A DNA stretch of 64,000 nucleotides. Origin: Escherichia phage vB_EcoM_01. The stretch lies in the sequence record PP129558; one strand, 5' to 3'. The translations under genes and the position numbers were made by a program. Below the pieces are notes generated by a model. That model made no database searches, was not told where the DNA came from, and saw only the letters and a list, made by a program, of their open reading frames with translations. Positions 1,063 to 26,509 of the stretch are shown here, piece after piece (the stretch's first letter is position 1; every line of letters starts with the position of its first letter).

Positions 1063-1070
1063 AACCCTCC

Positions 1071-2063: not shown

Positions 2064-2072
2064 CAGTTCTCC

Positions 2073-2695: not shown

Positions 2696-2904
2696 TATTC
2701 CTCCTTAATTATTTCAAACTTGGCAACACCATTTACAATAATATGACCACAAGACATAACTCCTAGCCAAGGATCGCCGTTTTTCTTCAGGCGTTTACCG
2801 AATACATCACAAAAACCATTCTTCATTTCAGAGGCTTCATAAGAAGCCCCTTTGTCAAAAACGTCTTTGAATGTGTCGATTATACCAACACATTTCAAAA
2901 TCAT
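2695..2904 (-). CDS. hypothetical protein
   Basis: 69 aa ORF; start overlaps the nrdB stop. Confidence 0.35.
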   Translation of the reverse strand: MILKCVGIIDTFKDVFDKGASYEASEMKNGFCDVFGKRLKKNGDPWLGVMSCGHIIVNGVAKFEIIKEE

Positions 2905-3989: not shown

Positions 3990-5124
3990 TTAAAATTCTC
4001 CTCAATAAAAAGGGGCCGAAGCCCCTAGTTTCATCACATCTTGCAAGCTTCACAACCACCATCAGAATCTTCTTGTGCTAAAGAGTCTGCTGATTTTGTT
4101 CTACTATTAAGGTAATACAATGANNNNNNNNNNNNNNNNNNNNNNNNNNNNNNNNNNNNNNNNNNNNNNNNNNNNNNNNNNNNNNNNNNNNNNNNNNNNN
4201 NNNNNNNNNNNNNNNNNNNNNNNNNNNNNNNNNNNNNNNNNNNNNNNNNNNNNNNNNNNNNNNNNNNNNNNNNNNNNNNNNNNNNNNNNNNNNNNNNNNN
4301 NNNNNNNNNNNNNNNNNNNNNNNNNNNNNNNNNNNNNNNNNNNNNNNNNNNNNNNNNNNNNNNNNNNNNNNNNNNNNNNNNNNNNNNNNNNNNNNNNNNN
4401 NNNNNNNNNNNNNNNNNNNNNNNNNNNNNNNNNNNNNNNNNNNNNNNNNNNNNNNNNNNNNNNNNNNNNNNNNNNNNNNNNNNNNNNNNNNNNNNNNNNN
4501 NNNNNNNNNNNNNNNNNNNNNNNNNNNNNNNNNNNNNNNNNNNNNNNNNNNNNNNNNNNNNNNNNNNNNNNNNNNNNNNNNNNNNNNNNNNNNNNNNNNN
4601 NNNNNNNNNNNNNNNNNNNNNNNNNNNNNNNNNNNNNNNNNNNNNNNNNNNNNNNNNNNNNNNNNNNNNNNNNNNNNNNNNNNNNNNNNNNNNNNNNNNN
4701 NNNNNNNNNNNNNNNNNNNNNNNNNNNNNNNNNNNNNNNNNNNNNNNNNNNNNNNNNNNNNNNNNNNNNNNNNNNNNNNNNNNNNNNNNNNNNNNNNNNN
4801 NNNNNNNNNNNNNNNNNNNNNNNNNNNNNNNNNNNNNNNNNNNNNNNNNNNNNNNNNNNNNNNNNNNNNNNNNNNNNNNNNNNNNNNNNNNNNNNNNNNN
4901 NNNNNNNNNNNNNNNNNNNNNNNNNNNNNNNNNNNNNNNNNNNNNNNNNNNNNNNNNNNNNNNNNNNNNNNNNNNATTAATTGCTGCCATTTAAAATTCT
5001 CCTCAATAAAAAGGGGCCGAAGCCCCTAGTTTCATCACATCTTGCAAGCTTCACAACCACCATCAGAATCTTCTTGTGCTAAAGAGTCTGCTGATTTTGT
5101 TCTACTATTAAGGTAATACAATGA
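3973..5124. other. assembly gap: N run 4125-4975 flanked by identical ~150-bp sequence (3973-4124 = 4973-5124)
   Basis: Flanks are identical and each contains the nrdA stop, a terminator hairpin and the nrdB start; uncollapsed contig-end overlap. ORFs 4034..4990 and 4120..4980 are artefacts. Confidence 0.9.
5005..5027 (-). terminator. intrinsic terminator-like hairpin between nrdA and nrdB (duplicated at 4005-4027)
   Basis: Minus-strand RNA reads AGGGGCTTCGGCCCCT followed by TTTTTAT; GC stem with TTCG loop. Confidence 0.5.
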
Positions 5125-7275
5125 TTTGCCACCCAGTCTAGCAAAATTCAAAATAAACTGCATCTCAGCTTTCACGGATAAACGTCCACCTACCAATTTA
5201 GAATAATCTAGCCAAGAATCACAAGAAATTCCTTGGTCAGTAAACTTGGTAAAGATACCATACATTTCTGCAAGGTCTTTAGCCGGAGTATCCCAGGCAG
5301 ATTGGTAGAACATTTTCAGTTTTTCGTAGTCTGGAACAATAAATAATACACTACCTTTCTGACTTTGTTTATACATAATGGTATCACGAACAGGATACAG
5401 AGAGTTAGTAGTATTGCTTACCAAACTGCTGGACTCATTAGGTGCAATAGCAGCCAATACACTGTTACGGATACCACCTTGTTCAATGATTTCAGCACGT
5501 AAGCCTTCCCAGTCCATTTTAAGATCAAAATTACCGATACTATCTACTGTTTTAGCATAAGTGTCAATTGGTAGCCAACCTTGAGGCCATTTGGTCTTAT
5601 CGATCCATTCTGCATTACCTTTTTCCTTAGCCAGACGCAGAGAGGCTTTTGCCAACCAGAAGTAATGACGTTCTGCAAGTTCATGCATTAATTTTTTAGC
5701 ATAAGCATCTGAATAATTTACAAAATTACTTGCCAAGTAATGCGCTAAGTTTGTAATGCCTACACCAATAGATCTACGTGCTTTAGCAGTTATTTCGTTA
5801 TGTTTAAATGGATAATCCATTGTTTCAATAACGTTGTCAATTGTCAATACAGTGTAGTATGCAACATCTTCATATTCTTCAGGTAATACACGACCAGCAA
5901 CAATAGAAGATAAGAAGCATAAAGCCAATTCTTGATCTTCTGTATTCTCACCAGTAAAGAGATCCGGCATACTGTGGAAAGCTTTAGTTGGTAAGAAGAT
6001 CTCTTGACACAGGTTTGATTGATACACCGTATCCAGGAAAGGTGTATGGTTGTTAACGTTGTCAGCAAAGAACATGTAAATACGTCCTGTTTCTGCACGT
6101 TGAACAATAATCTCTGTCAGAAGATCACGAGCCTTAACAAATTTTTTCTTAATGCGACGACGGCTTACTTTGTCATAAACTGCATCAAACTCTTCTTCAC
6201 TTTTATACAAAGCTTCATAAAGTTCTGGAGCATCATCACAACTAACTAACATCCAATCTTCGTTTTTTGCTGCTCGACGCAAGAATGAACGGTTAACAAC
6301 AATAGAATAATCCAGTTTGTCTACTCGTTTATCTATAGGTGTTGTTGGATTCTTCAGTCGAATCAGATCGTCGAAGTCTGGTTCAAGTATGGTAAAGGTA
6401 ACTGTAGCACTACCTCCACGGCTTGCTTGCTTCGAAGCTCCAACACTATCTTCCATCCATTTCAGATATGGAAGAAGACCACCATGAATAATACGATTAT
6501 TCTTAACACCTTGACCTGTGGCACGAGTTTGAAGATTAACACCAATACCTGCGTTATTTAACGTATACTCATGAGCTAAGTAATTAGCAATGGCTAAAGA
6601 CTCTGCTGTATCGTCTGCGCGGAATAAACAACAAGACGCACTTCCTTTGATTGGAGTTCGTAGAGTTGTCAGATACGGCGATGGCAGATTAATCTTAAGA
6701 TCGCTAACATAAGTATAAAGTTTTTTAATATCTTCTATACGGCGTTCTTTTGGTTGGATCTCCATAACCTTCATTGCGATACCAATGAAAAGAAACTGTG
6801 GAGACTCATGCACAACATCGTTTACTGCATCTCGAATAAGATATTTATCTACCATCTGACGTAAAACAGAATAACCATAAGTTAGATTTTTATTATGCTT
6901 TACAATCTTACCGATTTCTTTGATCTCTTCATCAGTATAATCCATTTTAGCCCAATGTCCACGTTCTACCATATCATGATAAAAGGTATTCAGTGAAGGG
7001 ATACTGTGGTATCCCCCATGAGCCTGTTTGTAAATCATACCCAGAAGAAGTCTTCCTGCCATATCACTGTAAGCTTGTGTTTTCTTGTCAATACACGCTG
7101 CAATCATTGCTTTATGCAGATCACGTGTAGACACACCGTCATAACACCGCTTCACAGCTTCTAATTCAATTTCAGACCAGTTTAGTTTACCTGCTGCAAA
7201 TTCAGACCACTTGCGAAGTTTTTCTGGATTAAACTCCTCTGTCTTACCGTTAGATTTAGTTACAAAACGAATCAA
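5035..7275 (-). CDS. nrdA: ribonucleotide reductase class Ia alpha subunit (NrdA)
   Basis: 746 aa; N-terminal ATP-cone-like region and C-terminal Cys pair (CEACKM) typical of NrdA. Confidence 0.85.
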   Translation of the reverse strand: MIRFVTKSNGKTEEFNPEKLRKWSEFAAGKLNWSEIELEAVKRCYDGVSTRDLHKAMIAACIDKKTQAYSDMAGRLLLGMIYKQAHGGYHSIPSLNTFYHDMVERGHWAKMDYTDEEIKEIGKIVKHNKNLTYGYSVLRQMVDKYLIRDAVNDVVHESPQFLFIGIAMKVMEIQPKERRIEDIKKLYTYVSDLKINLPSPYLTTLRTPIKGSASCCLFRADDTAESLAIANYLAHEYTLNNAGIGVNLQTRATGQGVKNNRIIHGGLLPYLKWMEDSVGASKQASRGGSATVTFTILEPDFDDLIRLKNPTTPIDKRVDKLDYSIVVNRSFLRRAAKNEDWMLVSCDDAPELYEALYKSEEEFDAVYDKVSRRRIKKKFVKARDLLTEIIVQRAETGRIYMFFADNVNNHTPFLDTVYQSNLCQEIFLPTKAFHSMPDLFTGENTEDQELALCFLSSIVAGRVLPEEYEDVAYYTVLTIDNVIETMDYPFKHNEITAKARRSIGVGITNLAHYLASNFVNYSDAYAKKLMHELAERHYFWLAKASLRLAKEKGNAEWIDKTKWPQGWLPIDTYAKTVDSIGNFDLKMDWEGLRAEIIEQGGIRNSVLAAIAPNESSSLVSNTTNSLYPVRDTIMYKQSQKGSVLFIVPDYEKLKMFYQSAWDTPAKDLAEMYGIFTKFTDQGISCDSWLDYSKLVGGRLSVKAEMQFILNFARLGGKSLYYLNSRTKSADSLAQEDSDGGCEACKM

Positions 7276-13492: not shown

Positions 13493-13525
13493 ATAATATC
13501 ATAACTAATCCCGCAAGTCAAGAAC

Positions 13526-14404
13526 TTATTTAAGGATTGTTGCTTTGGTTAAATCTTCCATCAGACCTCGAATCTCATTGAAGCACAGAAGGACCGAAGC
13601 TTCAATACTACCTTCTTCGTCTGCAAAATATTTCGGAAAACGTAGTTTAGAAAGTTTAAACTCTTTATCCACTACAAAATCTACAACACCGTCATATTCA
13701 AGACCGATTGCAACAACATCTTTACCATCTTCTTTTAGTTCGACAGCTTTAGACTCGTATAGGGATTCTTTACTCCAAACAACAACGCCCTCGCTATCCT
13801 CCATTTTGATATAATTTCCGAGAGTAATACGATCTGCTTCGTGATTCTCCAGCAATTCACCAAAACCTTTCACAATAGCTTCTTCATGCACACTAAAACC
13901 TACCGAAGGGAAAGTCCCCAGAACGGAACGGAGGAAAGAAGTAATCTCTTCTGCAACCTTTTTACTTCCATTAAGAACATAAAGAAGATTCGTAGTTTTA
14001 TCCAGAACCACATAATTGAAGAAATCTTCCGGTTCGGTTTCTGGGAGCAGACCAAATTCAATATCAGCTTTCAGGACTTTCATGTCTTCTTTAGCTACAA
14101 AGAATTCTTGGCCTTGGCTTTCCATATCTACTCGAATTTCTTCCAGGCGTTCATTAAGAAGACGTTTAACTTTCTTCTTGTCAACTTTCTTAACAGATTG
14201 ACCAACCTGGAGGAGTTCCAGATCGGAGAACTCTTTTACGTATTTCCCATCATCTTCAAAACGAACCAGACCAATAGTATGGGCTTGAGATCCTTCGGCA
14301 GGTACAAAGTCAATCGGAAATTCGTTGAACTCGTTCAGAGACGCTACAGAAGCATTATCACCAGCAACCATCGGAAGTGCAGATTTAAAAGATTTAACGA
14401 ACAT
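13526..14404 (-). CDS. RdgC-like recombination-associated protein (tentative)
   Basis: 292 aa; length and residue pattern (LLP..F, V.D..S.K.AE, LR.SLG..P) loosely resemble RdgC as recalled from memory; not searched. Confidence 0.35.
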   Translation of the reverse strand: MFVKSFKSALPMVAGDNASVASLNEFNEFPIDFVPAEGSQAHTIGLVRFEDDGKYVKEFSDLELLQVGQSVKKVDKKKVKRLLNERLEEIRVDMESQGQEFFVAKEDMKVLKADIEFGLLPETEPEDFFNYVVLDKTTNLLYVLNGSKKVAEEITSFLRSVLGTFPSVGFSVHEEAIVKGFGELLENHEADRITLGNYIKMEDSEGVVVWSKESLYESKAVELKEDGKDVVAIGLEYDGVVDFVVDKEFKLSKLRFPKYFADEEGSIEASVLLCFNEIRGLMEDLTKATILK

Positions 14405-14430
14405 ATATTTCCTCCTATTATTTAACTCTC

Positions 14431-14453
14431 ACAATAACCGCCCCGAAGGGCGG
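14431..14453 (-). terminator. terminator-like hairpin (minus strand)
   Basis: CCGCCC-CGAA-GGGCGG stem-loop downstream of the 14462..15190 gene; weak U tract. Confidence 0.4.
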
Positions 14454-14461
14454 CTTACAGA

Positions 14462-15190
14462 TTATTTCTTAGCAATGATTTTTGCAATATCAGGTTTAAC
14501 AAAGGTAGAAGGCTTCATGATCTTACCTTTATCATCAAAGAACACATACACTTTCTGTTTTTCATTATAAACAGCATGAACACCAGTGTATGCCCCTTCT
14601 GGACGATTGGCATTTCGTTCTTCAATTGCAGCGCATTCTTGTGCAATGGCTGAATCGATATCCGAAGTTTTCCAAGTTTTCAGCAACTGTTGTTTAGTTG
14701 GATACTTGGAATCATTACTTTTCAATACCTCTTTAATAACTTTCTTTTCTGGATATTTTGAACGGATTAGAGTGTCACGAGACATACGCATAATACCAGC
14801 AGCCATTAGTGCCATTTGAACTGGCTCTGTAAATGTTTGTTCCAAAGCATCAAAATCAGTATACACAGTTGGAGTAAAAACATCGCCTACAACATAGTCC
14901 AAGAAATTCATCGTATGTTCTTCACCAAAGAACATGTAAGTAAGATAACTGGATACTACAAAAATATCCGCTGCTGCATCCAAGAGTTCTACATGATCGT
15001 TTACTTTCGCGGCTGTTTCATACTCTTTAAGCTCTTCACGAACGAACCCGATTTGGGACATAAATAGCTCTTGAGTGAATTCAGGTTGTTCACCACCTCG
15101 TGCTTTGGCATTCCAATCAATTACGTGCTTTGCTGCATTTTTGAAAAATTCAGTATCGAATTTAATATCTTTAAAAAAATTCTCGATCAT
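14462..15190 (-). CDS. hypothetical protein, possible MazG-like NTP pyrophosphohydrolase
   Basis: 242 aa; REELKEYETAA...ELLDAAADIF resembles the EExxE...ExxD acidic motif of MazG-type enzymes; weak. Confidence 0.3.
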   Translation of the reverse strand: MIENFFKDIKFDTEFFKNAAKHVIDWNAKARGGEQPEFTQELFMSQIGFVREELKEYETAAKVNDHVELLDAAADIFVVSSYLTYMFFGEEHTMNFLDYVVGDVFTPTVYTDFDALEQTFTEPVQMALMAAGIMRMSRDTLIRSKYPEKKVIKEVLKSNDSKYPTKQQLLKTWKTSDIDSAIAQECAAIEERNANRPEGAYTGVHAVYNEKQKVYVFFDDKGKIMKPSTFVKPDIAKIIAKK

Positions 15191-15199
15191 TATAACTCC

Positions 15200-15382
15200 T
15201 TATTTAAAATAGCTTTCTAGAAAGTTGCTAATATTTACTACAGACTCACCCATGTAAATCCCTGCGAAACCGAAAACAAGCATACGTGGAATATTGAAAT
15301 ACCATTTATCTGCCGGAAAAGATGCCAGAATTACGATAGCAATTGCTATCAACATCATAAGAATTGTTGCTAAAATTATCAT
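15200..15382 (-). CDS. small membrane protein (60 aa, two hydrophobic segments)
   Basis: Start MIILATILMMLIAIAIV with GGAGG 6 nt upstream; the ORF-track version (15200..15487) extends into the duplicated segment. Confidence 0.4.
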   Translation of the reverse strand: MIILATILMMLIAIAIVILASFPADKWYFNIPRMLVFGFAGIYMGESVVNISNFLESYFK

Positions 15383-15626
15383 AAAAATGCCTCCAGGTAT
15401 TTTGCACAATGATAAGCTAAGAACATTTTTCCTCCTTATTCTGCTGGTTCCCAAGTGCCTGGGATCATTTCTCGAATACGATAGCAATTGCTATCAACAT
15501 CATAAGAATTGTTGCTAAAATTATCATAAAAATGCCTCCAGGTATTTTGCACAATGATAAGCTAAGAACATTTTTCCTCCTTATTCTGCTGGTTCCCAAG
15601 TGCCTGGGATCATTTCTCGAATACGA
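15332..15626. repeat. perfect tandem duplication of ~146 bp (15336-15480 = 15481-15625)
   Basis: Unit holds the ligase 3-prime end, an RBS and the start of the small membrane protein; same size class as the other duplications and the gap flanks. Confidence 0.85.
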
Positions 15627-16708
15627 ACACCAACAGGTTTTGTTGGAATACCTTCATCTGAAAATTCTTCATACTCTATTTCAACGAACTGATTAATCAA
15701 GGTAGAAGCATTCTCTGCTTTACGATAATTGATAGTCTCATGAGCATCTTTACGCATTAAGAATTCGACTACTTTACCATTTTCCATCTCACCTGTCAAC
15801 ACTCCATCACCATTTTTATCACTTTTTGAATTTGTTACTTTAACTTCAAGGGTGTGGCGAGGCTTACGTTTAATAACGTCATAAGAACGTTTATCAAATT
15901 CGTAAACTCCGTGAGCATTACGATATACTACACCTTCAGCTTTCTCAAGTAAAGCTTTTTCATAGAAAGCATCAAACTGTTCTTGGTTTTCAATATACTC
16001 TGTATGAACTACGCAAATAAGCTCGTCAAGACCATAATCTTCAACTACTGCCTTAAGAGCAGCAAGAACATCAACACGTTTTTCAAACGGTAGATCTGGA
16101 ACTGGAATATCGTATACGTAATAATTCAGCAAAGGTGTATTTGCATTATGCTTCTTCCAGGCACTGTTAATTTGTTGCAGACTAAGGACACCTAACCCAG
16201 CAAACACTTCACCATCAAGAGGATGACCAACAACTTCACTAATAAAGTTTGGAATACCTTTCCAATGAGGTGGCAGGTTATACACTTCTCCAGCTTTTGA
16301 TAAACACTCCCCTTTCATGTTAATCATAGAACGTAACCCGTTCAGTTTGTATTGTGCATAACCAGGGAACACAACCCTTTCAGGATAATCTTTATAATCC
16401 TGGCATTTCATTGGTGTGGAAGGAACATGGTTTTCAGCTTCTTCTTTTGTTTTATAATAGCCATTCTTTAACTGTTTTGTCCATTTGGCAAAAGCTTCAA
16501 GTTCAGCTTGTTCTTCTGGTGTTGTTTCATTGGAACGACCGATGTTTTTTGCTTCTGCTGTATAAGATTTTTCTGTGATTTTTCCACCTACCCTTCCATG
16601 AGCTACAGTAACAACTGCACCATCTGTATACACTGTCCACTGTTTAAGTTTTCCTTTTGAATCTTTACCATACAGCGTTTGATTTGTTTGTTGCATTAGT
16701 CCTCCCAT
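15581..16708 (-). CDS. ATP-dependent ligase (nucleotidyltransferase superfamily), probably DNA ligase
   Basis: 375 aa; motif I KLNGLR (KxNG variant of KxDG), motif III LDGEVF, motif IV EGVVYR, motif V DVIKRKP. Confidence 0.55.
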   Translation of the reverse strand: MGGLMQQTNQTLYGKDSKGKLKQWTVYTDGAVVTVAHGRVGGKITEKSYTAEAKNIGRSNETTPEEQAELEAFAKWTKQLKNGYYKTKEEAENHVPSTPMKCQDYKDYPERVVFPGYAQYKLNGLRSMINMKGECLSKAGEVYNLPPHWKGIPNFISEVVGHPLDGEVFAGLGVLSLQQINSAWKKHNANTPLLNYYVYDIPVPDLPFEKRVDVLAALKAVVEDYGLDELICVVHTEYIENQEQFDAFYEKALLEKAEGVVYRNAHGVYEFDKRSYDVIKRKPRHTLEVKVTNSKSDKNGDGVLTGEMENGKVVEFLMRKDAHETINYRKAENASTLINQFVEIEYEEFSDEGIPTKPVGVRIREMIPGTWEPAE

Positions 16709-16917
16709 TTAAAAACTGAAATTTTCAATCTGTTACACACTTCATCCAAATCTGCGTCGAGTAACGTTGTAGATGTTGCCAACATATAATCAATGCTTGT
16801 GAAACCTTGCCCTTTGGCATAGTCAAGCATATCTTCATACATATCTTCAAGATCACCGTCATCAAAAGTAGCTAGAAAATCCTCGTCCCCACTACGAACA
16901 TAAAATGCAGTACTCAT
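16696..16917 (-). CDS. hypothetical small, highly acidic protein
   Basis: 73 aa, very D/E-rich (SGDEDFLATFDDGDLEDMYEDMLDY). Confidence 0.3.
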   Translation of the reverse strand: MSTAFYVRSGDEDFLATFDDGDLEDMYEDMLDYAKGQGFTSIDYMLATSTTLLDADLDEVCNRLKISVFKWED

Positions 16918-17102
16918 TCATCTTCATCCCAAGATTCAAAAACGCAGCAATCATCGGTTTCTATAATACCAACACGTCCGCAGGTATTGCAAGTGATTTT
17001 ATCACCGTAGAATAAATAATTTTTATCACCCTCTGTGTTTACAGTTATGTCATTACTACCACAAGGGCAAGTCAGCCAACCAACAACGATATCTTTTTTC
17101 AT
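16914..17102 (-). CDS. hypothetical zinc-ribbon protein
   Basis: 62 aa; CPCG...CNTCG Cys pairs. Confidence 0.3.
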   Translation of the reverse strand: MKKDIVVGWLTCPCGSNDITVNTEGDKNYLFYGDKITCNTCGRVGIIETDDCCVFESWDEDE

Positions 17103-17111
17103 AATCCCTCC

Positions 17112-17438
17112 TTAAGCGTTCAGTTCGTTGTTGAGTTCGTAAATCTCTTCTTGAAGAGCATCAATCTCTTCCTCCAAACGGGAGATCTCTTCTTTTAGAT
17201 ATACCATTTCTGATTCTTTCTCTTCTAATTCATTTTCAAATTTTACTTTATTCGCCTCATTTTCATAATGCAGTTCAGCGTAATCATCACGCATTTGTTC
17301 AATAAGATGAATCAGAGATAAGATATAGTTATCCCCAGTTTCATCTCGCCACTCTTCCCCGTGGCGCAAGATTGTGATTCGTCCAGTATCTTCATCTAAA
17401 ATTGTCTCATATTTACGATCATCTGTATAAATCTGCAT
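17112..17438 (-). CDS. hypothetical coiled-coil protein
   Basis: 108 aa; C-terminal heptad-like E/L-rich region. Confidence 0.35.
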   Translation of the reverse strand: MQIYTDDRKYETILDEDTGRITILRHGEEWRDETGDNYILSLIHLIEQMRDDYAELHYENEANKVKFENELEEKESEMVYLKEEISRLEEEIDALQEEIYELNNELNA

Positions 17439-17447
17439 TATTTCTCC

Positions 17448-17852
17448 TTATTGAAGTTTAAGTGAACCACGAAGACGCTTCTCTTGCTGATCACGAATAT
17501 ATTGTGGAACCTCGTGAATTGAATCATTACCGTGCCTATTTTCAACAACTAAAGAGATAACTTGATAACCAAACTCTTCAGCAAGAGTTAGATAAGGTTT
17601 AAGTTCTTTCTCTGTGGTTGAAGTGTTAGAAACAATAATCTTGTTAAGATTAGATGCCATAGCATCACGAACAATACTCTGACACCATGCGTGTGCTTTA
17701 CCTACATTTTCTGGCTTCCAATCGTAAACACCACTTTCTGTGTAATGATATTGATCTGCCTCACAGATAGGCCAATAACCTTCAGAAATAATTTCTGCTA
17801 CTGTAGATTTACCAGCACCTGAAACGCCACGTAAAATGATAAGTTGTTTCAT
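17448..17852 (-). CDS. P-loop polynucleotide 5-prime kinase (T4 Pnk kinase-domain-like)
   Basis: 134 aa; Walker A GVSGAGKST; IIVSNTS and LAEEFGYQV segments resemble the T4 Pnk kinase domain as recalled from memory; no phosphatase domain. Confidence 0.5.
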   Translation of the reverse strand: MKQLIILRGVSGAGKSTVAEIISEGYWPICEADQYHYTESGVYDWKPENVGKAHAWCQSIVRDAMASNLNKIIVSNTSTTEKELKPYLTLAEEFGYQVISLVVENRHGNDSIHEVPQYIRDQQEKRLRGSLKLQ

Positions 17853-18785
17853 TTATCCTCCAAAGAAGTTTTCGATTTTTTCACGTCGCTCTTGCTGATT
17901 TAAAGCAGCCCATTGAGTCTTCGTAAAATTATTTCGAATCCATTCTAACAAAGCGTAATATTCTTCGTCAACAATTTGTTTGGCATTTTTTGGATTATCC
18001 CAAATCAGATCCCACTTTTTATCTCCACCGCGCATAAGAAACTTCTTAGTAAGATAGTGTGGTGATTTAATTTTTAAAAGTAAGTTGAACGGATAGTTTG
18101 TTTCACGAACTACAAACCCTTCGTGTTTACAATGCTTAGACATTTCAACAACATCTGAAAACTTAACCATTGGATGAACTTCAGGACGCTTAAATTTGGT
18201 GACAGAAGCAATCCCATCAAGAGCACCTTCAGGTAACATAAAACTTGTCCCATCAGGATTTTGAATTCTGGCACCAATTAAGTATGCACCTGGTTCTTCT
18301 TCGACAATATGTGGATCAGAAGGATCACAGATTTCAAAAAGGAAAGTTGCTTTTGCACTCTCTGTCCATTTGATGAAATGTTCTATGTCATCACACTCTG
18401 AAACAATACGATTCTTTGCAATACTTGCAAAATCTGATTCAAGGCTTCCTGTTGTCGATACAATAAGCTGACCTTTATATACACCTACAGAGGCCATAAA
18501 ACCATTTACTTTACGAACCACATCTACAAATTCATCCGCTGGTAGATCTGTGCCATTCTCAAAACGATTAAAAATCTTAGTGAAAGGCCAAATAACAACA
18601 TTGTCATCAGCGTCAACAACGATTCCGCGACATTCTAGAAGACGAGAATCAATGTTCCACAGGTTATCCCAGAAAACTTTGTTCTTATACTTAAGAACAG
18701 ATAGACCAGAATACTCTCCTTCTTTATATGTTTTCTTATGAACTAAACCTTTTTCAACCAAATCGTCGCAATTAAATTTAGTCAC
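17853..18785 (-). CDS. RNA ligase-like nucleotidyltransferase (Rnl-type)
   Basis: 310 aa; motif I KVNGFM, motif IV EGFVVR, motif V LLLKIK; sits between the kinase and the phosphoesterase. Confidence 0.45.
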   Translation of the reverse strand: MTKFNCDDLVEKGLVHKKTYKEGEYSGLSVLKYKNKVFWDNLWNIDSRLLECRGIVVDADDNVVIWPFTKIFNRFENGTDLPADEFVDVVRKVNGFMASVGVYKGQLIVSTTGSLESDFASIAKNRIVSECDDIEHFIKWTESAKATFLFEICDPSDPHIVEEEPGAYLIGARIQNPDGTSFMLPEGALDGIASVTKFKRPEVHPMVKFSDVVEMSKHCKHEGFVVRETNYPFNLLLKIKSPHYLTKKFLMRGGDKKWDLIWDNPKNAKQIVDEEYYALLEWIRNNFTKTQWAALNQQERREKIENFFGG

Positions 18786-18786
18786 A

Positions 18787-19338
18787 TTACTCTCCTTTGA
18801 TTATTTTGTGATGGTCTACAGTTACGATATCTCGTTTACTCATCATAGAAATTATCTCATCAAAATGTAAGATTTTTCCATGTGCATCCCAACCCACATC
18901 TAACATTTTACCATAAGCTTCATCAGGGAAAGATCCGTGGGAATGCCCATGTAGCATGATTGATCCACGACCTTGTTTATTCCAGGAGGCCATAGGGTAA
19001 TGGCTTAAGACGAAGAACAGCTTCTGATATTTCACTTCGTCATAATACACCACTTCTCCATACTCTGCAAGCACTTCTCGGTGTTTGCTGTAATCATGGT
19101 TCCCAACACAATAAGTGATATCCCCTTGGAGGCGGGAAGCAATCTTACGGGTATCTTCTTCAGTCCCGAAACAGAAGTCACCCAAATGCCACATCTTGAC
19201 ACCTGGACTCGTAGCGCATTTATTCCATGCTTCGATCAGTGCTTCTGTCATGTGGTCCATATCTTCCCACGGTCGATATTCAGGAGCAAACTCTCGTATA
19301 CGTTTGTGCATAAAATGCAAATCACTTGTAATAAACAT
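18787..19338 (-). CDS. calcineurin-like metallophosphoesterase
   Basis: 183 aa; DLHF, GDFCFG, GNHD and GHSH motifs of the metallophosphatase fold. Confidence 0.7.
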   Translation of the reverse strand: MFITSDLHFMHKRIREFAPEYRPWEDMDHMTEALIEAWNKCATSPGVKMWHLGDFCFGTEEDTRKIASRLQGDITYCVGNHDYSKHREVLAEYGEVVYYDEVKYQKLFFVLSHYPMASWNKQGRGSIMLHGHSHGSFPDEAYGKMLDVGWDAHGKILHFDEIISMMSKRDIVTVDHHKIIKGE

Positions 19339-19694
19339 TAGTATAATCCCTCGCTAAATAGGTCACGATCATGACCATTACGTTCGTAGTCAATCTGGTC
19401 TGCGTGTTTTGCAATAATGTATGCATCTTCACGACTCCACCAATTGTAGTATTGATCAATAAAACCTTGATTGTTTGGAAGACAATGCACTTTATCAAGC
19501 ACACCTGCTTCTTTCAATACATTCAATTGTGCTGATAATACAGGATTTGCATGTCGAACACAAGGAATAATTAACTCTTCACCATTATTCAAAATATATT
19601 TATTCGCAGCACAGACGATAACACGTTGCGCATAATGACCCTCACCAATCCAGGTAAGAGGTTGGTAACAAATGTTCTGATCAATACTACTCAT
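19338..19694 (-). CDS. hypothetical protein
   Basis: 118 aa; AAGGAGAA RBS; its 5-prime end lies in copy 1 of a tandem duplication. Confidence 0.4.
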   Translation of the reverse strand: MSSIDQNICYQPLTWIGEGHYAQRVIVCAANKYILNNGEELIIPCVRHANPVLSAQLNVLKEAGVLDKVHCLPNNQGFIDQYYNWWSREDAYIIAKHADQIDYERNGHDRDLFSEGLY

Positions 19695-19913
19695 TAAGTT
19701 TCTCCTTAATAGTGAACACGAATCATTTTAATACCATAACGCAGCATGGATTCTTTTGCAAGCATATAACACGTTGCGCATAATGACCCTCACCAATCCA
19801 GGTAAGAGGTTGGTAACAAATGTTCTGATCAATACTACTCATTAAGTTTCTCCTTAATAGTGAACACGAATCATTTTAATACCATAACGCAGCATGGATT
19901 CTTTTGCAAGCAT
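19617..19913. repeat. perfect tandem duplication of ~148 bp (19618-19765 = 19766-19913)
   Basis: Unit holds the last 18 codons of gene 19854..20210, the intergenic RBS and the first 26 codons of gene 19338..19694. Confidence 0.85.
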
Positions 19914-20210
19914 GAATTTATCCCCAGCGGCGGGGTTAGAAGTATGCACGAAAATGGTAGGTGAACCAAAGCAAGGTTTACCAAACGCCAGAAGTTCTTC
20001 CAGGTACAGGAAAACATCATACCCATCTTGGTCTGACTCCATACCCAAATCGTTGTCAAAATGCCACTCGTCTACAAAACGATAACCCTTCTGCACCTCA
20101 TTCATGTAACGAGAGGCAAGAAGTTCCTGTGAGGTTTTAAACCAGATTGCATCTGGACAACCATAATCTTTTGGATCACGTAAATCATCAAGCCAAATAA
20201 TAGTACCCAT
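19854..20210 (-). CDS. hypothetical protein
   Basis: 118 aa ORF in the operon. Confidence 0.4.
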   Translation of the reverse strand: MGTIIWLDDLRDPKDYGCPDAIWFKTSQELLASRYMNEVQKGYRFVDEWHFDNDLGMESDQDGYDVFLYLEELLAFGKPCFGSPTIFVHTSNPAAGDKFMLAKESMLRYGIKMIRVHY

Positions 20211-21351: not shown

Positions 21352-22003
21352 TTCTTTTTGCTCCTCTTTTTAGATTTCTCATACAAACCTAACACAGCCG
21401 CTTCTTTTGCACAAGTAGGAACTGAAGTCATTCCTCTTCTTTTTGCTTCTGGCAGTTGCAAAGTCCATATTCNGTCTCTTATNNNNNNNNNNNNNNNNNN
21501 NNNNNNNNNNNNNNNNNNNNNNNNNNNNNNNNNNNNNNNNNNNNNNNNNNNNNNNNNNNNNNNNNNNNNNNNNNNNNNNNNNNNNNNNNNNNNNNNNNNN
21601 NNNNNNNNNNNNNNNNNNNNNNNNNNNNNNNNNNNNNNNNNNNNNNNNNNNNNNNNNNNNNNNNNNNNNNNNNNNNNNNNNNNNNNNNNNNNNNNNNNNN
21701 NNNNNNNNNNNNNNNNNNNNNNNNNNNNNNNNNNNNNNNNNNNNNNNNNNNNNNNNNNNNNNNNNNNNNNNNNNNNNNNNNNNNNNNNNNNNNNNNNNNN
21801 NNNNNNNNNNNNNNNNNNNNNNNNNNNNNNNNNNNNNNNNNNNNAGAGACAGCTTTTACACACTTCAGGAAAGTCTTGATCATTTCTTTTTGCTCCTCTT
21901 TTTAGATTTCTCATACAAACCTAACACAGCCGCTTCTTTTGCACAAGTAGGAACTGAAGTCATTCCTCTTCTTTTTGCTTCTGGCAGTTGCAAAGTCCAT
22001 ATT
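21331..22003. other. assembly gap: N run 21481-21844 flanked by ~140-bp duplicated sequence
   Basis: Flanks near 21331-21473 and 21861-22003 are identical, with ambiguous bases beside the Ns; ORFs made of X codons are artefacts. Confidence 0.9.
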
Positions 22004-24495: not shown

Positions 24496-24570
24496 GGCCC
24501 TGTAGCTCAATGGGAGAGCTGTCGGCTCATAACCGATAGGTAGCTGGATCGAAACCAGCCAGGGCCACCA
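24496..24570 (+). tRNA. tRNA with CAT anticodon (Met or Ile2)
   Basis: Manual fold: acceptor GGCCCTG/CAGGGCC, D stem GCTC/GAGC, anticodon loop CTCATAA, T arm GCTGG-ATCGAAA-CCAGC, encoded CCA. Confidence 0.7.
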
Positions 24571-24572
24571 AC

Positions 24573-24647
24573 GTCTTTATGGTGTAATGGATAGCACAGG
24601 AGTCTTCTAAACTCTTAGTCAAGGTTCGATTCCTTGTAAAGACACCA
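24573..24647 (+). tRNA. tRNA-Arg (anticodon TCT)
   Basis: Acceptor GTCTTTA/TAAAGAC, anticodon loop CTTCTAA, T arm CAAGG-TTCGATT-CCTTG, encoded CCA. Confidence 0.75.
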
Positions 24648-24650
24648 GAA

Positions 24651-24831
24651 CATTTTAACATGAATTAGCTCAAGTGATTTGAACCCACTACTGATCATGG
24701 TGGCAGAGAATGAGGCAAGTATGTCAGACATTATAAACAAAGGCCACGGTTATATTAGAAGACATAAATGCTCGAAGAGCACCGTTCGTGGAGAGCGGGG
24801 GTTGGTGGAGTCACCATTCATGGTAAAATGT
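24651..24831 (+). ncRNA. candidate structured RNA (~180 nt) closed by a 17-bp long-range stem
   Basis: AACATTTTAACATGAAT (24651-24667) pairs with ATTCATGGTAAAATGTT (24815-24831) with one mismatch; between two tRNAs; the 63-aa ORF inside is probably not coding. Confidence 0.3.
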
Positions 24832-24843
24832 TTTAAAAAACTA

Positions 24844-24872
24844 TTGACAACTAACATTATTTTATGTTAGAT
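24844..24872 (+). promoter_or_regulatory. candidate promoter (TTGACA-N17-TTAGAT) ahead of tRNA-Ser
   Basis: Consensus -35 hexamer; the tRNA 5-prime end at 24882 is at a plausible distance from the -10. Confidence 0.4.
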
Positions 24873-24881
24873 TATAAGTAT

Positions 24882-24972
24882 GGAAGGGCAAATCGACGTG
24901 GCGACGAAAACGGTCTTGAAAACCGCCGAGCTTGAAAGAGCCTTGGGAGTTCGACTCTCCCTCCTTCCGCCA
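24882..24972 (+). tRNA. tRNA-Ser (anticodon TGA), type II
   Basis: Acceptor GGAAGGG/TCCTTCC, anticodon loop CTTGAAA, long variable arm, T arm GGGAG-TTCGACT-CTCCC, encoded CCA. Confidence 0.65.
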
Positions 24973-24977
24973 GATTA

Positions 24978-25063
24978 GGTAGATTGGTGAAATGGTAGCC
25001 ACGACAGTTTGCTAAACTGTAGTCGGAAACGGCGTGTAGGTTCGAGTCCTACATCTACCGCCA
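24978..25063 (+). tRNA. tRNA-Ser (anticodon GCT), type II
   Basis: Acceptor GGTAGAT/ATCTACC, anticodon stem ACAGT/ACTGT with loop TTGCTAA, long variable arm, T arm GTAGG-TTCGAGT-CCTAC, CCA. Confidence 0.65.
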
Positions 25064-25193
25064 AGTTCTTTTTAATGTAGCTTACTTTAGCAGAGTAAAT
25101 CTTCGGCAAGTGGCGGTAACCACTTTACCGATACCTCATAGTTAGTGGTGAGAACACTGGCTATTTTAAAAAGAATTTAAATATTAGTATTTA

Positions 25194-25281
25194 GGTGAGT
25201 TAATTCCGTAGGGGTAGCGGGGCAGACTGTAAATCTGTTATCATTGCGATTCGGGTGGTTCGACTCCATCACTCACCACCA
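25194..25281 (+). tRNA. tRNA-Tyr (anticodon GTA), type II
   Basis: Acceptor GGTGAGT/ACTCACC, anticodon loop CTGTAAA, long variable arm, T loop TTCGACT, CCA. Confidence 0.6.
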
Positions 25282-25287
25282 AATTAA

Positions 25288-25373
25288 GATGAGTTGGCTG
25301 AATGGTTTAAGCGGCGGACTGTTAATCCGTGTTCGAAAGAACAATATAGGTTCGAATCCTATACTCATCGCCA
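25288..25373 (+). tRNA. atypical type II tRNA whose anticodon loop parses as GTT
   Basis: Perfect acceptor GATGAGT/ACTCATC, T arm ATAGG-TTCGAAT-CCTAT, CCA; best anticodon arm GCGGA-CTGTTAA-TCCGT gives GTT, yet there is a 15-nt variable arm with its own GTTC-GAAA-GAAC hairpin. Confidence 0.4.
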
Positions 25374-25380
25374 GAATTAT

Positions 25381-25457
25381 GGACTTGTAGAGTTAAGGTA
25401 AACCCCCAGTCGCCAATAGGCTTCTGGAATTGCAGGTATCGAATCCTGCCGAGTCCC
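25381..25457 (+). ncRNA. tRNA-like element with aberrant anticodon arm (possible tRNA pseudogene)
   Basis: Acceptor GGACTTG/CGAGTCC and T arm GCAGG...CCTGC (8-nt loop) are present, but the anticodon region forms a bulged hairpin with an AATA tetraloop; no CCA. Confidence 0.3.
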
Positions 25458-25463
25458 AGCATT

Positions 25464-25538
25464 GCTCCTATAGTATAATGGCTATTACAACGGTTTTGTA
25501 ATCCGTGGATCTCTGTTCGATTCAGTGTGGGAGCACCA
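25464..25538 (+). tRNA. tRNA-Thr (anticodon TGT)
   Basis: Acceptor GCTCCTA/TGGGAGC, anticodon loop TTTGTAA, T loop TTCGATT, CCA. Confidence 0.6.
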
Positions 25539-25811
25539 ACACAACATTAAGAGCACTGTGATTGATCGTCGTATCCTGTGCACAAGGTCTGCTCGAAAGA
25601 CAGTGTTCTTAGTATTGTGTTGATCACAAAAAGAGTCACCCGAAACTTGACCGGAGTAGGGTTGGATGGGGCAAAATGAGAAGCGGCTCTCCCATCGACA
25701 GCAACGAAGAATAATATTTGACTTTGGTTTTGTATTATTTTAAGTTAGCTTACCGAACGTAGGGCTAGTCACCCAACGGGATACTCGTCACTGTCCCAAT
25801 CAATAAAAGTC

Positions 25812-25841
25812 TTGACAACAAATAGTAAAATGTAGTATAGT
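25812..25841 (+). promoter_or_regulatory. sigma70-like promoter (TTGACA-N18-TATAGT) ahead of tRNA-Gly
   Basis: Consensus -35 and near-consensus -10; the tRNA 5-prime end is 12 nt downstream. Confidence 0.55.
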
Positions 25842-25852
25842 AAATATATAGG

Positions 25853-25926
25853 GCGTTCTTGGTGTAGCGGTAGCATTCCGTCCTTCCAAGTCGGCGGCAC
25901 GAGTTCGATCCTCGTAGAACGCTCCA
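25853..25926 (+). tRNA. tRNA-Gly (anticodon TCC)
   Basis: Acceptor GCGTTCT/AGAACGC, anticodon loop CTTCCAA, T arm ACGAG-TTCGATC-CTCGT, CCA. Confidence 0.6.
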
Positions 25927-26024
25927 AATTATTTAATAAAGGGTTGCCAGAAAACTTTCTCTTTTACTCATGGTTTTCTCCTTCTCTCACACTTCTTCTG
26001 GTTGCCCTTCATTAAATGATTTAT

Positions 26025-26100
26025 TGGTTTGTAGTGTAGTCCGGTAGCACACGACACTTTGACTGTCGTAGGTTTGGTTCAAATCCAGACAGACCAGCCA
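26025..26100 (+). tRNA. tRNA-Gln (anticodon TTG)
   Basis: Acceptor TGGTTTG/CAGACCA, anticodon stem CGACA/TGTCG with loop CTTTGAC, T loop TTCAAAT, CCA. Confidence 0.7.
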
Positions 26101-26270
26101 TATAACGGAATTTAGCTCAGTTTGGTAGAGCGTACGCTTTGGGAGCGTAGGGTCGCAGGTTCGAATCCTGCAATNCNGACAGACCAGCCATATAACGGAA
26201 TTTAGCTCAGTTTGGTAGAGCGTACGCTTTGGGAGCGTAGGGTCGCAGGTTCGAATCCTGCAATTCCGAC
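26091..26270. repeat. 90-bp tandem duplication with ambiguous bases at the junction (26175, 26177), duplicating tRNA-Pro
   Basis: 26091-26180 equals 26181-26270 apart from ncn; copy 1 of tRNA-Pro (26106-26180) is 3-prime degraded by the ambiguous bases; probably a consensus artefact. Confidence 0.7.
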
Positions 26271-26272
26271 CA
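26196..26272 (+). tRNA. tRNA-Pro (anticodon TGG)
   Basis: Acceptor CGGAATT/AATTCCG, anticodon stem TACGC/GCGTA with loop TTTGGGA, T arm GCAGG-TTCGAAT-CCTGC, CCA. Confidence 0.7.
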
Positions 26273-26278
26273 ATTAAA

Positions 26279-26352
26279 TGTTTCGTAGTTCAATGGTAGA
26301 ACCCACGACTGATAATCGTGAGACACAAGTTCGATTCTTGTCGAAACAACCA
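26279..26352 (+). tRNA. tRNA-Ile (anticodon GAT)
   Basis: Acceptor TGTTTCG/CGAAACA, anticodon stem CACGA/TCGTG with loop CTGATAA, T arm ACAAG-TTCGATT-CTTGT, CCA. Confidence 0.75.
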
Positions 26353-26354
26353 GT

Positions 26355-26424
26355 TTCCCGTTAGACTTACAGGATAAGAGATCCACAATTTATTGTGACG
26401 CTGGTTCGAATCCAGCACGGGATA
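26355..26424 (+). ncRNA. tRNA-like element with tetraloop in place of an anticodon loop
   Basis: Perfect T arm GCTGG-TTCGAAT-CCAGC and a 6/7 acceptor pairing, but the central arm is CACAA-TTTA-TTGTG (4-nt loop); CC without A at the 3-prime end. Confidence 0.3.
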
Positions 26425-26430
26425 CCTAAT

Positions 26431-26509
26431 AGCGGGATAGAGGAGTCTGGTCGTCCTCGCCAGTTTCATATGCTGGAGATCATTGGTTCAAATCCAATTC
26501 CCGCCTCCA
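26431..26509 (+). tRNA. second tRNA with CAT anticodon (Met or Ile2); A1-C72 mismatch
   Basis: Acceptor AGCGGGA/TCCCGCC (position 1-72 unpaired), D stem GAGG/CCTC, anticodon stem CCAGT/GCTGG with loop TTCATAT, T arm ATTGG-TTCAAAT-CCAAT, CCA; lacks the three G-C pairs of an initiator anticodon stem. Confidence 0.6.

Follow-up and report, generated by a model that had tools for sequence, protein, structure and literature searches.

The KxNG form of nucleotidyltransferase motif I, in which Asn replaces the Asp of KxDG, has been described in several active enzymes, namely fungal Trl1 (PMC6379707), MthRnl (PMC4797309) and the ASFV DNA ligase, AsfvLIG (PMC6344480). Asn99 is non-essential in MthRnl, Trl1 can dispense with its Asn in vivo (PMC4797309), and AsfvLIG is active with Asn at position 153 (PMC6344480). 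Accordingly, Asn at this position is compatible with activity. AsfvLIG (PDB 6imj, 6imk, 6iml, 6imn) has a three-domain layout that includes an N-terminal mixed alpha/beta DNA-binding domain, described as unique to this enzyme. Its motif I is KRNGVR and its catalytic lysine is K151. The enzyme functions in base-excision repair, and low fidelity has been reported for it.

Among RNA ligases, T4 Rnl1 (374 aa; PDB 2c5u, 5tt6, 9do4) has Asp101 in motif I and is paired with end-healing enzymes; in T4, healing is by a Pnkp that is bifunctional and has a phosphatase of the DxDxT type (PMC3592404). The Trl1 ligase domain (Trl1-LIG; Rnl6 clade; PDB 6n67, 6n0t, 8rbj, 9qw7) combines KxNG with an all-helical C-terminal domain, and it acts alongside a kinase and an enzyme that opens cyclic phosphates. 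The whole of Trl1 is a single trifunctional polypeptide, and its cyclic phosphodiesterase is of the 2H type, unrelated to metallophosphoesterases or to cREC (cyclic-phosphate-processing receiver-like) proteins. In Trl1-LIG a sulfate that mimics a 2'-PO4 is bound by Asn150 of motif I, by His227 (motif III Glu +9) and by Arg334/Arg337 (motif V Lys +9/+12), and mutants of the His-Arg-Arg triad are slowed 60- to 580-fold in step 2 (PMC6379707, PMC11404444). A further arrangement is that of Clostridium thermocellum Pnkp (CthPnkp) and of the bacterial Pnkp1-Rnl-Hen1 systems for RNA repair, with a P-loop kinase, a binuclear metallophosphoesterase and an ATP-dependent ligase. At the level of gene neighbourhoods, Iyer et al. 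2022 (PMC9503650) list a sirtuin, a tRNA ligase like that of T4, a protein of the cREC family, a nucleotide kinase and MazG, plus a calcineurin-like phosphoesterase in some cases, and include the same neighbourhood from rV5/Mydo-type phages. The cREC family is a predicted opener of 2',3'-cyclic phosphates and is tied to phage tRNA ligases (PMC7824862, PMC9503650).

The locus considered here lies in a 64,000-nucleotide stretch of Escherichia phage vB_EcoM_01 (sequence record PP129558), termed the window. The window is 96.7% identical to Klebsiella phage ZCKP1, in which both ligase genes are already annotated as ligases. Its source is a Phapecoctavirus-like phage, and 11 phage tRNA genes are found within it. 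Features of the locus are listed in Table 1. About 1.1 kb separates the two ligase genes, which share an operon-like block, and this linkage is kept in relatives. Assignment to families, the position of the motifs, sequence conservation, synteny and fusions of genes point to two unrelated ATP-dependent ligases, a DNA ligase and an RNA ligase that is the sealer of a heal-and-seal repair cassette (probability roughly 85%). It is part of this joint explanation, with the same confidence, that the motif I Asn is a conserved and tolerated replacement of Asp, fixed independently in each ligase family. KxNG is thus in each ligase an independent and already documented family trait, not a chemistry specific to this genome.

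Table 1. Predicted features of the ligase locus (window positions)
Feature	Positions	Strand	Length or residues	Remarks
MazG-like nucleotide pyrophosphohydrolase	14462..15190	(-)	242 aa	downstream of DNA ligase
ATP-dependent DNA ligase	15581..16696	(-)	371 aa	longest ORF extends to 16708 (375 aa)
DNA ligase motif I, KLNGLR	16331..16348	(-)	aa 121-126 of ORF 15581-16708	
DNA ligase N-terminal domain	16412..16696	(-)	~95 aa	homologue of ASFV ligase N-terminal domain; WGR-like look
P-loop polynucleotide 5'-kinase-like protein	17448..17852	(-)	134 aa	start codon abuts RNA ligase stop
ATP-dependent RNA ligase	17853..18785	(-)	310 aa	GTG start; T4 Rnl1-like nucleotidyltransferase domain and short helical C-terminal domain
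RNA ligase motif I, KVNGFM	18495..18512	(-)	aa 92-97	
Binuclear metallophosphoesterase	18787..19338	(-)	183 aa	candidate 2',3'-end-healing enzyme
Protein of no known function	19338..19694	(-)	118 aa	between cREC and phosphoesterase
cREC domain protein	19854..20210	(-)	118 aa	

The initial annotation described two open reading frames, of 375 aa with KLNGLR and 310 aa with KVNGFM. It took both strings to be motif I of nucleotidyltransferase ligases and used only size and neighbours to tell the DNA ligase from the RNA ligase. Both reading frames are as described. Pfam, PHROG, PDB-profile and fold evidence places both proteins among the covalent nucleotidyltransferase ligases and agrees with the DNA/RNA assignment. 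Profile alignments to solved structures (4d05 and 6imj; T4 Rnl1) position both KxNG strings at motif I, and each protein has exactly one K-x-[N/D]-G string.

The start of the DNA ligase is most likely the ATG at 16696, since a GGGAGGA Shine-Dalgarno sequence is found just upstream and database homologues are 371 aa in length. The protein matches PF01068 (38.1 bits, cutoff 26.2) at aa 99-282, covering the whole profile length, and phrog_114 (E 1.9e-74). Its profile aligns co-linearly with AsfvLIG across residues 74-411 (E 5e-24), and the two have in common a layout of N-terminal DNA-binding, nucleotidyltransferase and C-terminal OB domains. The N-terminal domain described as unique to AsfvLIG is also present in the phage protein. 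Identity is only ~21-23%, and the N-terminus of the phage protein is shorter by ~50 aa. The motif I lysine and motifs III, IV and V are found where expected for an ATP-dependent DNA ligase, with Asn for the KxDG Asp. In the alignments KLNGLR falls on KLDGIR of Lig E (4d05) and on KRNGVR of AsfvLIG (6imj; K151/N153), and the residue predicted to accept AMP is K121 of the open reading frame, or K117 in the 371-aa numbering. Among 34 homologues, the K, G and R of motif I (K117, G120, R122) are invariant, as are D161/E163 (motif III), E254/G255 (motif IV) and K276/K278 (motif V). The Asn is found in 107 of 120 homologues and is replaced by Asp in the other 13. The protein is the predicted ATP-dependent DNA ligase of the phage, with the architecture of the ASFV enzyme. 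It would form Lys117-AMP, transfer the AMP to a 5'-phosphate and seal the nick by attack of the 3'-OH. Its role is presumably replicative, in contrast to that of AsfvLIG.

The 310-aa protein is predicted to be an RNA ligase with a catalytic domain like that of T4 Rnl1. It matches PF09511 (E 5.2e-15; 56.3 bits, cutoff 28.3) and phrog_562 (E 1.9e-70), and its family profiles match the T4 Rnl1 structure 2c5u at E 1.2e-10 and 2.9e-17. R53, K70, K92, E151, E222/G223 and K238/K240 align with R54, K75, K99, E159, E227/G228 and K240/K242 of T4 Rnl1, and these equivalents of the T4 catalytic residues are invariant in a 102-sequence alignment. KVNGFM falls on TKEDGSL of T4 Rnl1 (catalytic lysine K99). 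The residue predicted to accept AMP is K92, sealing would proceed via Lys92-AMP, and Asn94 stands for Asp101. N94 and G95 are as invariant as K92 in the same alignment. Of 120 close homologues, 118 have Asn in motif I and the remaining two have no motif in the scanned interval; Asn is also present in all 150 aligned representatives, each from a different cluster at 50% identity. Asp was found in no homologue with a readable motif I. The RNA ligase is part of a large phage clade in which the Asn does not vary.

An AF2 model of the RNA ligase has a pLDDT of 91, and its best Foldseek matches are Trl1-LIG and T4 Rnl1 (E ~1e-13 to 1e-12). Profile alignments end just past motif V (T4 ~250), with no alignment to the C-terminal tRNA-specificity domain of T4 Rnl1. 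The phage C-terminal region is ~70 aa long (aa ~242-310), compared with ~120 aa in T4 Rnl1, and consists of short helices, six of them at aa 242-307 in the AF2 model. The protein shares with the Rnl6 clade a KxNG motif I (KVNGFM) and an all-helical C-terminal domain.

The proposed cassette has the order cREC, the 118-aa protein of no known function, metallophosphoesterase, ligase and polynucleotide kinase. As in T4, a phage-encoded ligase is accompanied by end-healing enzymes, but kinase, metallophosphoesterase and cREC are separate proteins here. The kinase-like protein matches AAA_33 (E 4e-10) and the polynucleotide kinase family phrog_505 (E 1.7e-8), and the best PDB matches of its family profile are Pnkp1 (4.6e-7), T4 Pnk (2.9e-6) and CthPnk (1.3e-5). 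It has a P-loop, GVSGAGKST, and an invariant Asp33 that aligns on T4 Pnk Asp35, and it shares 30-45% identity with the kinase domains found in fusions with members of the RNA ligase clade. The metallophosphoesterase, whose stop is one base from the ligase start, matches Metallophos (25.4 bits, cutoff 21.5) and phrog_547 (E 8.7e-56) and has all metal-binding motifs (DxH, GD, GNHD, H, GHxH). A phosphoesterase of 41-52% identity is directly upstream of the ligase in three distant loci (L002–L004) as well. A BLAST comparison of the phage phosphoesterase with the Metallophos domains in such fusions detected no similarity, so its proposed role follows from conserved adjacency.

The cREC protein matches PF20274 (E 7.1e-14; 52.7 bits, cutoff 27) and is encoded two genes upstream of the phosphoesterase; in L002–L004 no cREC was detected up to 4 kb from the ligase. 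The stop of the intervening 118-aa protein gene overlaps the phosphoesterase start by one base (position 19338). This protein belongs to phrog_839 (E 5e-47), a family without known function, and gave no match in a Pfam search; its position makes it a putative cassette member. The MazG-like protein matches PRA-PH (E 2.7e-6) and phrog_671 (E 2e-29). The region 14462-20210 contains the ligase, cREC, kinase, MazG-like protein and phosphoesterase of the neighbourhood given in PMC9503650, without the sirtuin.

Cassette components are linked by conserved adjacency and by fusion. The gene order phosphoesterase, ligase, kinase is kept in L002–L004, and the same order followed by the DNA ligase is conserved at ~50% identity. 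Single-polypeptide fusions include kinase-metallophosphoesterase-ligase proteins of 700-810 aa, as well as kinase-ligase and ligase-kinase forms. The predicted set of three activities is that of CthPnkp, and the three-part fusions have its domain order (PMC3675462). In the phage, the three are separate genes in an order that differs from the kinase-phosphoesterase-ligase order of CthPnkp, the CthPnkp ligase module is of a different family with Met at the motif I position (PMC4797309), and no Hen1 methyltransferase was seen near the phage cassette.

The enzymatic activities of all these proteins, and the biological target of the cassette, are predictions from sequence. The metallophosphoesterase and cREC are candidates for processing of 2',3'-cyclic or 3'-phosphate ends, and either or both may handle the 2',3'-cyclic phosphate. 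Phosphorylation of the 5'-OH before sealing would fall to the kinase. Most likely, the cassette would restore tRNAs cleaved by host anticodon nucleases. The C-terminal domain of the RNA ligase gave no alignment to the T4 Rnl1 domain for tRNA recognition, which makes tRNA a presumed substrate.

The initial annotation proposed that two KxNG motifs in one genome might reflect shared ancestry or a lineage-specific chemistry. Neither proposal is supported by comparison of the two families. Common recent ancestry, or a special chemistry acting on both ligases, might be suggested by the close and conserved linkage of the two genes, but is scarcely credible: no similarity could be detected between the DNA and RNA ligase families (hhalign probability 0.1%, BLASTP E 0.49), and the solved structures nearest to each protein come from different ligase families. 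In each family Asn extends far beyond the phage lineage, and KxNG is also found in fungi, archaea and ASFV. The Asn states are uncoupled across genomes, since L002 and L003 have an RNA ligase with KVNGFM beside a DNA ligase with KLDGVR, and Asp is confined to the DNA ligase side in the homologue counts given above. A tentative suggestion, possible though short of probable, is that the DNA ligase Asn is one half of a coupled nick-site change, with looser nick binding and perhaps low fidelity. In human LIG1 the motif I Asp570 is salt-bridged to Arg871 of the OB domain, and the ASFV and phage ligases replace both partners. ASFV N153, L211, L402 and Q403 correspond to human D570, F635, R871 and F872, and swapping the ASFV nick-site residues reduces activity (PMC6344480). 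At these positions the phage ligase has Asn, Leu (SLQQ) as in AsfvLIG, and Thr-Lys (PTKP) where AsfvLIG has Leu402-Gln403. Asn is paired with PTKP in 97 of 107 homologues and Asp with PLKP in 10 of 13. Yet the Asp-bearing relatives also have no Arg, and the coupling is therefore not a simple loss of the salt bridge; the correlation may only mirror phylogeny, and error-prone sealing would not be expected of a replicative ligase.

For the RNA ligase, Asn94, His159, Lys248 and Arg252 might form a pocket for a terminal 2'-phosphate, so that 3'-OH,2'-PO4 ends would be sealed as by fungal and plant tRNA ligases. Asn, unlike Asp, would not clash in charge with the 2'-phosphate, and a phage sirtuin or host KptA would later strip the junction phosphate. 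The four residues are invariant in 102 sequences 34-49% identical to the query, a conservation equal to that of the catalytic residues, and Trl1-LIG is the top Foldseek match (E 2.4e-13). Trl1 likewise has a His soon after motif III and two basic residues soon after motif V. ZCKP1 encodes a Sir2 homologue, and in L002 NAD-salvage genes and a Macro-domain gene adjoin the cassette. Iyer et al. propose a 2'-phosphate route with a sirtuin for the same neighbourhood, and the passages considered here discuss neither the motif I Asn nor the invariant His, Lys and Arg (PMC9503650). This route is nonetheless unlikely. Sequence resemblance is to T4 Rnl1 (E 2.9e-17), which does not join 2'-phosphate ends (PMC12440814), and no Trl1 chain was matched at E up to 10 by the 28- and 102-sequence profiles. 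The phage spacings (His159 +8, Lys248 +8, Arg252 +12) differ from those of Trl1 by one residue for the His and the first basic residue, one Arg is Lys, and basic residues past motif V could merely bind the RNA backbone. The cassette metallophosphoesterase suits complete phosphate removal, as in CthPnkp. A Sir2 gene is absent from the window, that of ZCKP1 being at 3249-4049, ~14 kb before the start of the window's similarity to ZCKP1. It is very improbable that the 310-aa protein is mainly a tail-fibre attachment factor rather than an RNA repair enzyme, as its name in PHROG and those of many homologues in GenBank would have it. Database records label it 'tail fiber attachment catalyst', a name presumably inherited from the dual-function T4 gene 63 product. 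However, its C-terminal domain is unlike that of T4 gp63, its catalytic ligase residues are all invariant, and its gene lies among those of nucleic-acid enzymes, while other genomes have it in fusions with kinase and phosphoesterase domains.

The KxNG sequences of the two ligases are independent, family-wide variants that have been documented before, and they reside in genes that are already annotated; in this sense the finding is an ordinary one. Both open reading frames are present in the window as the initial annotation described (Table), and each protein, DNA and RNA ligase alike, displays one K-x-[N/D]-G string. The 13500-19700 region of the window shows 96.7% identity to Klebsiella phage ZCKP1 (Phapecoctavirus, Stephanstirmvirinae), and 59 phage records have at least 95% identity to it. 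The names 'ATP-dependent DNA ligase' and 'RNA ligase' are already found in these records, and both genes carry annotation in over 100 genomes of related phages.

Table. Ligase genes, neighbouring open reading frames and tRNA cluster in the window.
Feature	Coordinates	Strand	Properties
MazG-like gene	14462-15190	-	
DNA ligase ORF	15581-16708	-	375 aa; KLNGLR at aa 121-126 (nt 16331-16348)
62-aa Cys-rich protein (CxC...CxxC)	within 16696-17438	-	phrog_4446; between kinase and DNA ligase
73-aa acidic protein	within 16696-17438	-	phrog_16431; between kinase and DNA ligase
108-aa coiled-coil protein	within 16696-17438	-	phrog_18076; between kinase and DNA ligase
P-loop kinase	17448-17852	-	134 aa; downstream of RNA ligase
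RNA ligase ORF	17853-18785	-	310 aa, GTG start; KVNGFM at aa 92-97 (nt 18495-18512)
Metallophosphoesterase	18787-19338	-	183 aa; upstream of RNA ligase
cREC domain protein	19854-20210	-	118 aa; PF20274 E 7e-14; two genes upstream of phosphoesterase
tRNA cluster	24496-26509	+	n=11: Met x2, Arg, Ser, Asn, Thr, Gly, Gln, Pro x2, Ile

Profile classification agrees with the initial annotation as to which ligase is which. With 38.1 bits, the 375-aa product exceeds the Pfam threshold of PF01068, the ATP-dependent DNA ligase domain (26.2), and it matches phrog_114 (E 1.9e-74). The 310-aa product, with 56.3 bits, exceeds the threshold of PF09511, the T4 Rnl1-type RNA ligase (28.3), and it matches phrog_562 (E 1.9e-70). 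Thus the assignment, originally drawn from size and neighbours, is correct independently of both. In PHROG and in many database records, the product of the RNA ligase gene is termed 'RNA ligase and tail fiber protein attachment catalyst', a name that presumably derives from T4 gp63. The tail-fibre half of this name is probably an over-annotation, as the C-terminal domain of the RNA ligase cannot be aligned with that of T4 Rnl1. For the DNA ligase, the most probable start codon is the ATG at 16696, four codons inside the longest open reading frame, since a GGGAGGA Shine-Dalgarno sequence precedes this codon and database homologues are 371 aa in length.

KxNG is a known, functional variant of motif I, and alignments to solved structures place it at motif I in both ligases, with the catalytic lysine not seen elsewhere. 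By phmmer and a 34-sequence family profile, KLNGLR of the DNA ligase aligns on KLDGIR of Lig E (4d05) and on KRNGVR of the ASFV ligase. Residue counting in the ASFV alignment gives K151/N153, which matches the numbering in the ASFV paper, where N153 stands at the position of D570 in human LIG1 (PMC6344480). The RNA ligase has zero matches to PDB sequences as a single sequence, and its relation to them is detectable by family profiles only. Profiles of 28 and 102 homologues match T4 Rnl1 with E values of 1.2e-10 and 2.9e-17, respectively. They place K-V-N-G-F-M on K99-E-D-G-S-L of T4 Rnl1, R53, K70 and E151 on R54, K75 and E159, and E222/G223 and K238/K240 on E227/G228 and K240/K242. For the ligase domain of the fungal tRNA ligase Trl1 (Trl1-LIG), the literature has the wording 'Motif I (KxNG in Trl1-LIG)', and Asn150 of this domain makes water-mediated contacts with the catalytic Mn and a hydrogen bond to sulfate (PMC6379707). 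The motif I Asn of Trl1 is dispensable in vivo, and the equivalent position is Asp, His, Met or Ser in other ligases (PMC4797309). A literature search for mutational data on Asp101 of T4 Rnl1 gave nothing useful.

The sequence K-x-N-G-[F/Y]-[M/L] is present in the scanned interval of 118 of 120 close homologues of the RNA ligase, the remaining two being without the motif there. Asn is also found in all 150 sequences aligned from the best cluster representatives at 50% identity; these come from a library of 1.8 billion proteins, in which 7,286 representatives match the RNA ligase at E<=0.001. The clade is therefore very large, and it is biochemically uncharacterised; it encompasses 731 phage records, with Escherichia, Pseudomonas, Streptomyces, Vibrio, Klebsiella and Acinetobacter among the hosts. 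Among 120 homologues of the DNA ligase, 107 display KLNGxR and 13 display KLDGxR. No similarity is detectable between the two families (hhalign probability 0.1%; BLASTP E 0.49). The double occurrence of KxNG had been proposed to signify either shared ancestry or lineage-specific chemistry. Shared ancestry is rejected on these null profile-profile and BLASTP comparisons. Lineage-specific chemistry is not upheld either, as the variants are independent, family-wide and previously documented, and in L002 and L003, loci of a related phage with the same gene block, an RNA ligase with KVNGFM lies beside a DNA ligase with KLDGVR. There is no evidence for a connection between the two Asn residues. Two useful leads emerge: a link between the ASFV ligase and the phage ligase family, WGR-like domain included, and, for the clade of the RNA ligase, a possible pocket for a 2'-phosphate.

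The top PDB match of the DNA ligase family profile is the ASFV ligase (E 5e-24). The match is co-linear with ASFV residues 74-411, and on this basis the phage enzyme has an ASFV-type N-terminal DNA-binding domain. It likewise has Leu at the position of ASFV L211, but Thr-Lys (PTKP) in place of Leu402-Gln403. In human LIG1 the corresponding pair is presumably that of the canonical PRFP motif. These human residues are Arg871-Phe872 (PMC6344480). The ASFV N-terminal domain has been called a unique or novel fold by the ASFV paper (PMC6344480) and by a later review, and no literature was found that ties it to phage ligases or to WGR. The ASFV ligase had earlier been grouped with ligases of bacteria and phages by Yutin and Koonin (PMC2806865). 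A WGR-NT-OB_2 layout is known in bacterial ligases (PMC7470946), and the review that describes it still terms the ASFV domain unique. With moderate confidence, the phage/ASFV-type N-terminal domain can be considered a divergent WGR. The supposedly unique ASFV features, i.e. the N-terminal domain, Asn153 and Leu211, are common to a large phage ligase family. The ASFV enzyme thereby sits inside a wider phage/bacterial family, and this bears on claims of ASFV-specific drug targets.

Motif I tracks a residue of the OB domain in the 120 DNA ligase homologues: Asn is found with PTKP in 97 of 107, and Asp with PLKP in 10 of 13. The equivalent sites in the window are 16331-16348 for motif I and near 15620 for the PTKP codons. 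The two residues could be physically coupled at the nick site, or their pairing could reflect mere shared descent. The DNA ligase, which has exonucleases and an RdgC-like protein among its neighbours, would seal nicks in replication, recombination and repair. In L004, a locus of a distant relative, the position of the DNA ligase is occupied by a gene for only 154 aa (6551-7015, + strand). Its product has the WGR-like N-terminal domain fused straight to the OB-domain end (PF14743), without the nucleotidyltransferase domain, and the preceding 222-aa open reading frame shows no ligase motifs. The 154-aa gene may be a ligase gene that has decayed or taken on another role.

The RNA ligase gene is separated from the flanking phosphoesterase and kinase genes by zero to one base. 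The order phosphoesterase, RNA ligase, kinase and then DNA ligase is kept in loci whose ligase is only ~50% identical, and in L002-L004 genes of similar size occupy the place of the three small open reading frames of 16696-17438. The cassette most likely mends tRNAs that anticodon nucleases of the host have cleaved. The cyclic phosphate would be processed by the phosphoesterase, the cREC protein or both; the kinase would then supply the 5'-phosphate at the 5'-OH end, and the RNA ligase would seal via Lys92-AMP. By these predicted activities, the cassette neatly exemplifies how phages counter host immunity that acts by cleaving RNA.

As a single sequence, the kinase gives P-loop noise only against the PDB. 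The first PDB matches of its nine-sequence profile are Pnkp1 (4.6e-7), T4 Pnk (2.9e-6) and CthPnk (1.3e-5), and its invariant Asp33 aligns on T4 Pnk Asp35. There are 35 ligase-clade representatives longer than 400 aa, and the ten sampled include kinase-metallophosphoesterase-ligase (700-810 aa), kinase-ligase and ligase-kinase fusions; in the latter two, the kinase domain shares 30-45% identity with the window kinase. The 183-aa phosphoesterase has no BLASTP match in the fused kinase-phosphoesterase-ligase proteins, and its sole match in a single-sequence PDB search is the uncharacterised Aq_1665. A role in opening 2',3'-cyclic phosphates is predicted for the cREC family (PMC7824862). The ZCKP1 counterpart of this gene is labelled only 'hypothetical', and no cREC was found within 4 kb of the ligase in L002-L004.

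It has also to be asked whether the clade of the RNA ligase, with KxNG[F/Y] and invariant His159, Lys248 and Arg252 as its defining features, represents a viral equivalent of the fungal/plant tRNA ligases that recognises and seals 3'-OH,2'-PO4 ends. We consider this unlikely. The cREC protein or the phosphoesterase would generate such ends, sealing would leave a 2'-phosphate junction, and a phage sirtuin or host KptA/Tpt1 would clear the junction phosphate using NAD+. Over 102 diverse members, Asn94, His159, Lys248 and Arg252 equal the catalytic residues in their invariance. In Trl1-LIG, the motif I Asn, together with a His at motif III Glu +9 and two Arg at +9/+12 from the second motif V Lys, binds a sulfate that stands in for the 2'-phosphate, and mutation of the His-Arg-Arg triad slows step 2 by 60- to 580-fold (PMC6379707, PMC11404444). 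The phage spacings differ slightly, +8/+8/+12 as against +9/+9/+12. Trl1-LIG is the top Foldseek match of the RNA ligase, just marginally above T4 Rnl1; in sequence, however, the enzyme is related to T4 Rnl1 and not to Trl1, and T4 Rnl1 rejects 2'-phosphate ends (PMC12440814). The metallophosphoesterase could, moreover, strip the phosphate entirely.

A role for a sirtuin in stripping the 2'-phosphate, in KptA-like fashion, has been proposed for this gene neighbourhood by Iyer et al. (PMC9503650). In combination with that proposal, the invariant residues and the Foldseek match suggest that the phage enzyme might recognise a 2'-phosphate end. A search of the window for a Sir2 homologue was negative, and the Sir2 gene of ZCKP1 falls outside the window. 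In L002/L003, positions 1-3195, before the cassette, contain genes for PRPP-synthetase-like, NAPRTase-family and Macro domain proteins. These genes, as NAD salvage/ADP-ribose processing functions, would fit either NAD-consuming 2'-phosphate removal or counter-defence against NAD depletion. If 2'-phosphate ends were indeed the substrate, there would be a functional reason for the motif I Asn, as well as the missing natural substrate for bacterial 2'-phosphotransferases. The invariant Asn/His/Lys/Arg set makes 2'-phosphate recognition a concrete, testable hypothesis.

A perfect tandem duplication of 145 bp (15332-15476 and 15477-15621, copies 100% identical) covers the end of the DNA ligase gene, with its final ~13 codons and stop, and the beginning of a small membrane-protein open reading frame that lies downstream. 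The unit is single-copy in ZCKP1, and the duplication leaves the DNA ligase protein unaltered. It could be a recent event or an assembly artefact. Masked or unresolved sequence is present as three N runs, at 4124-4975 (852 bases), 21483-21844 (362) and 51695-54002 (2308), and these account for the GC dips in the composition profile of the window. The tRNA cluster at 24496-26509 sits at a change in sign of the GC skew and at a switch of the transcribed strand.
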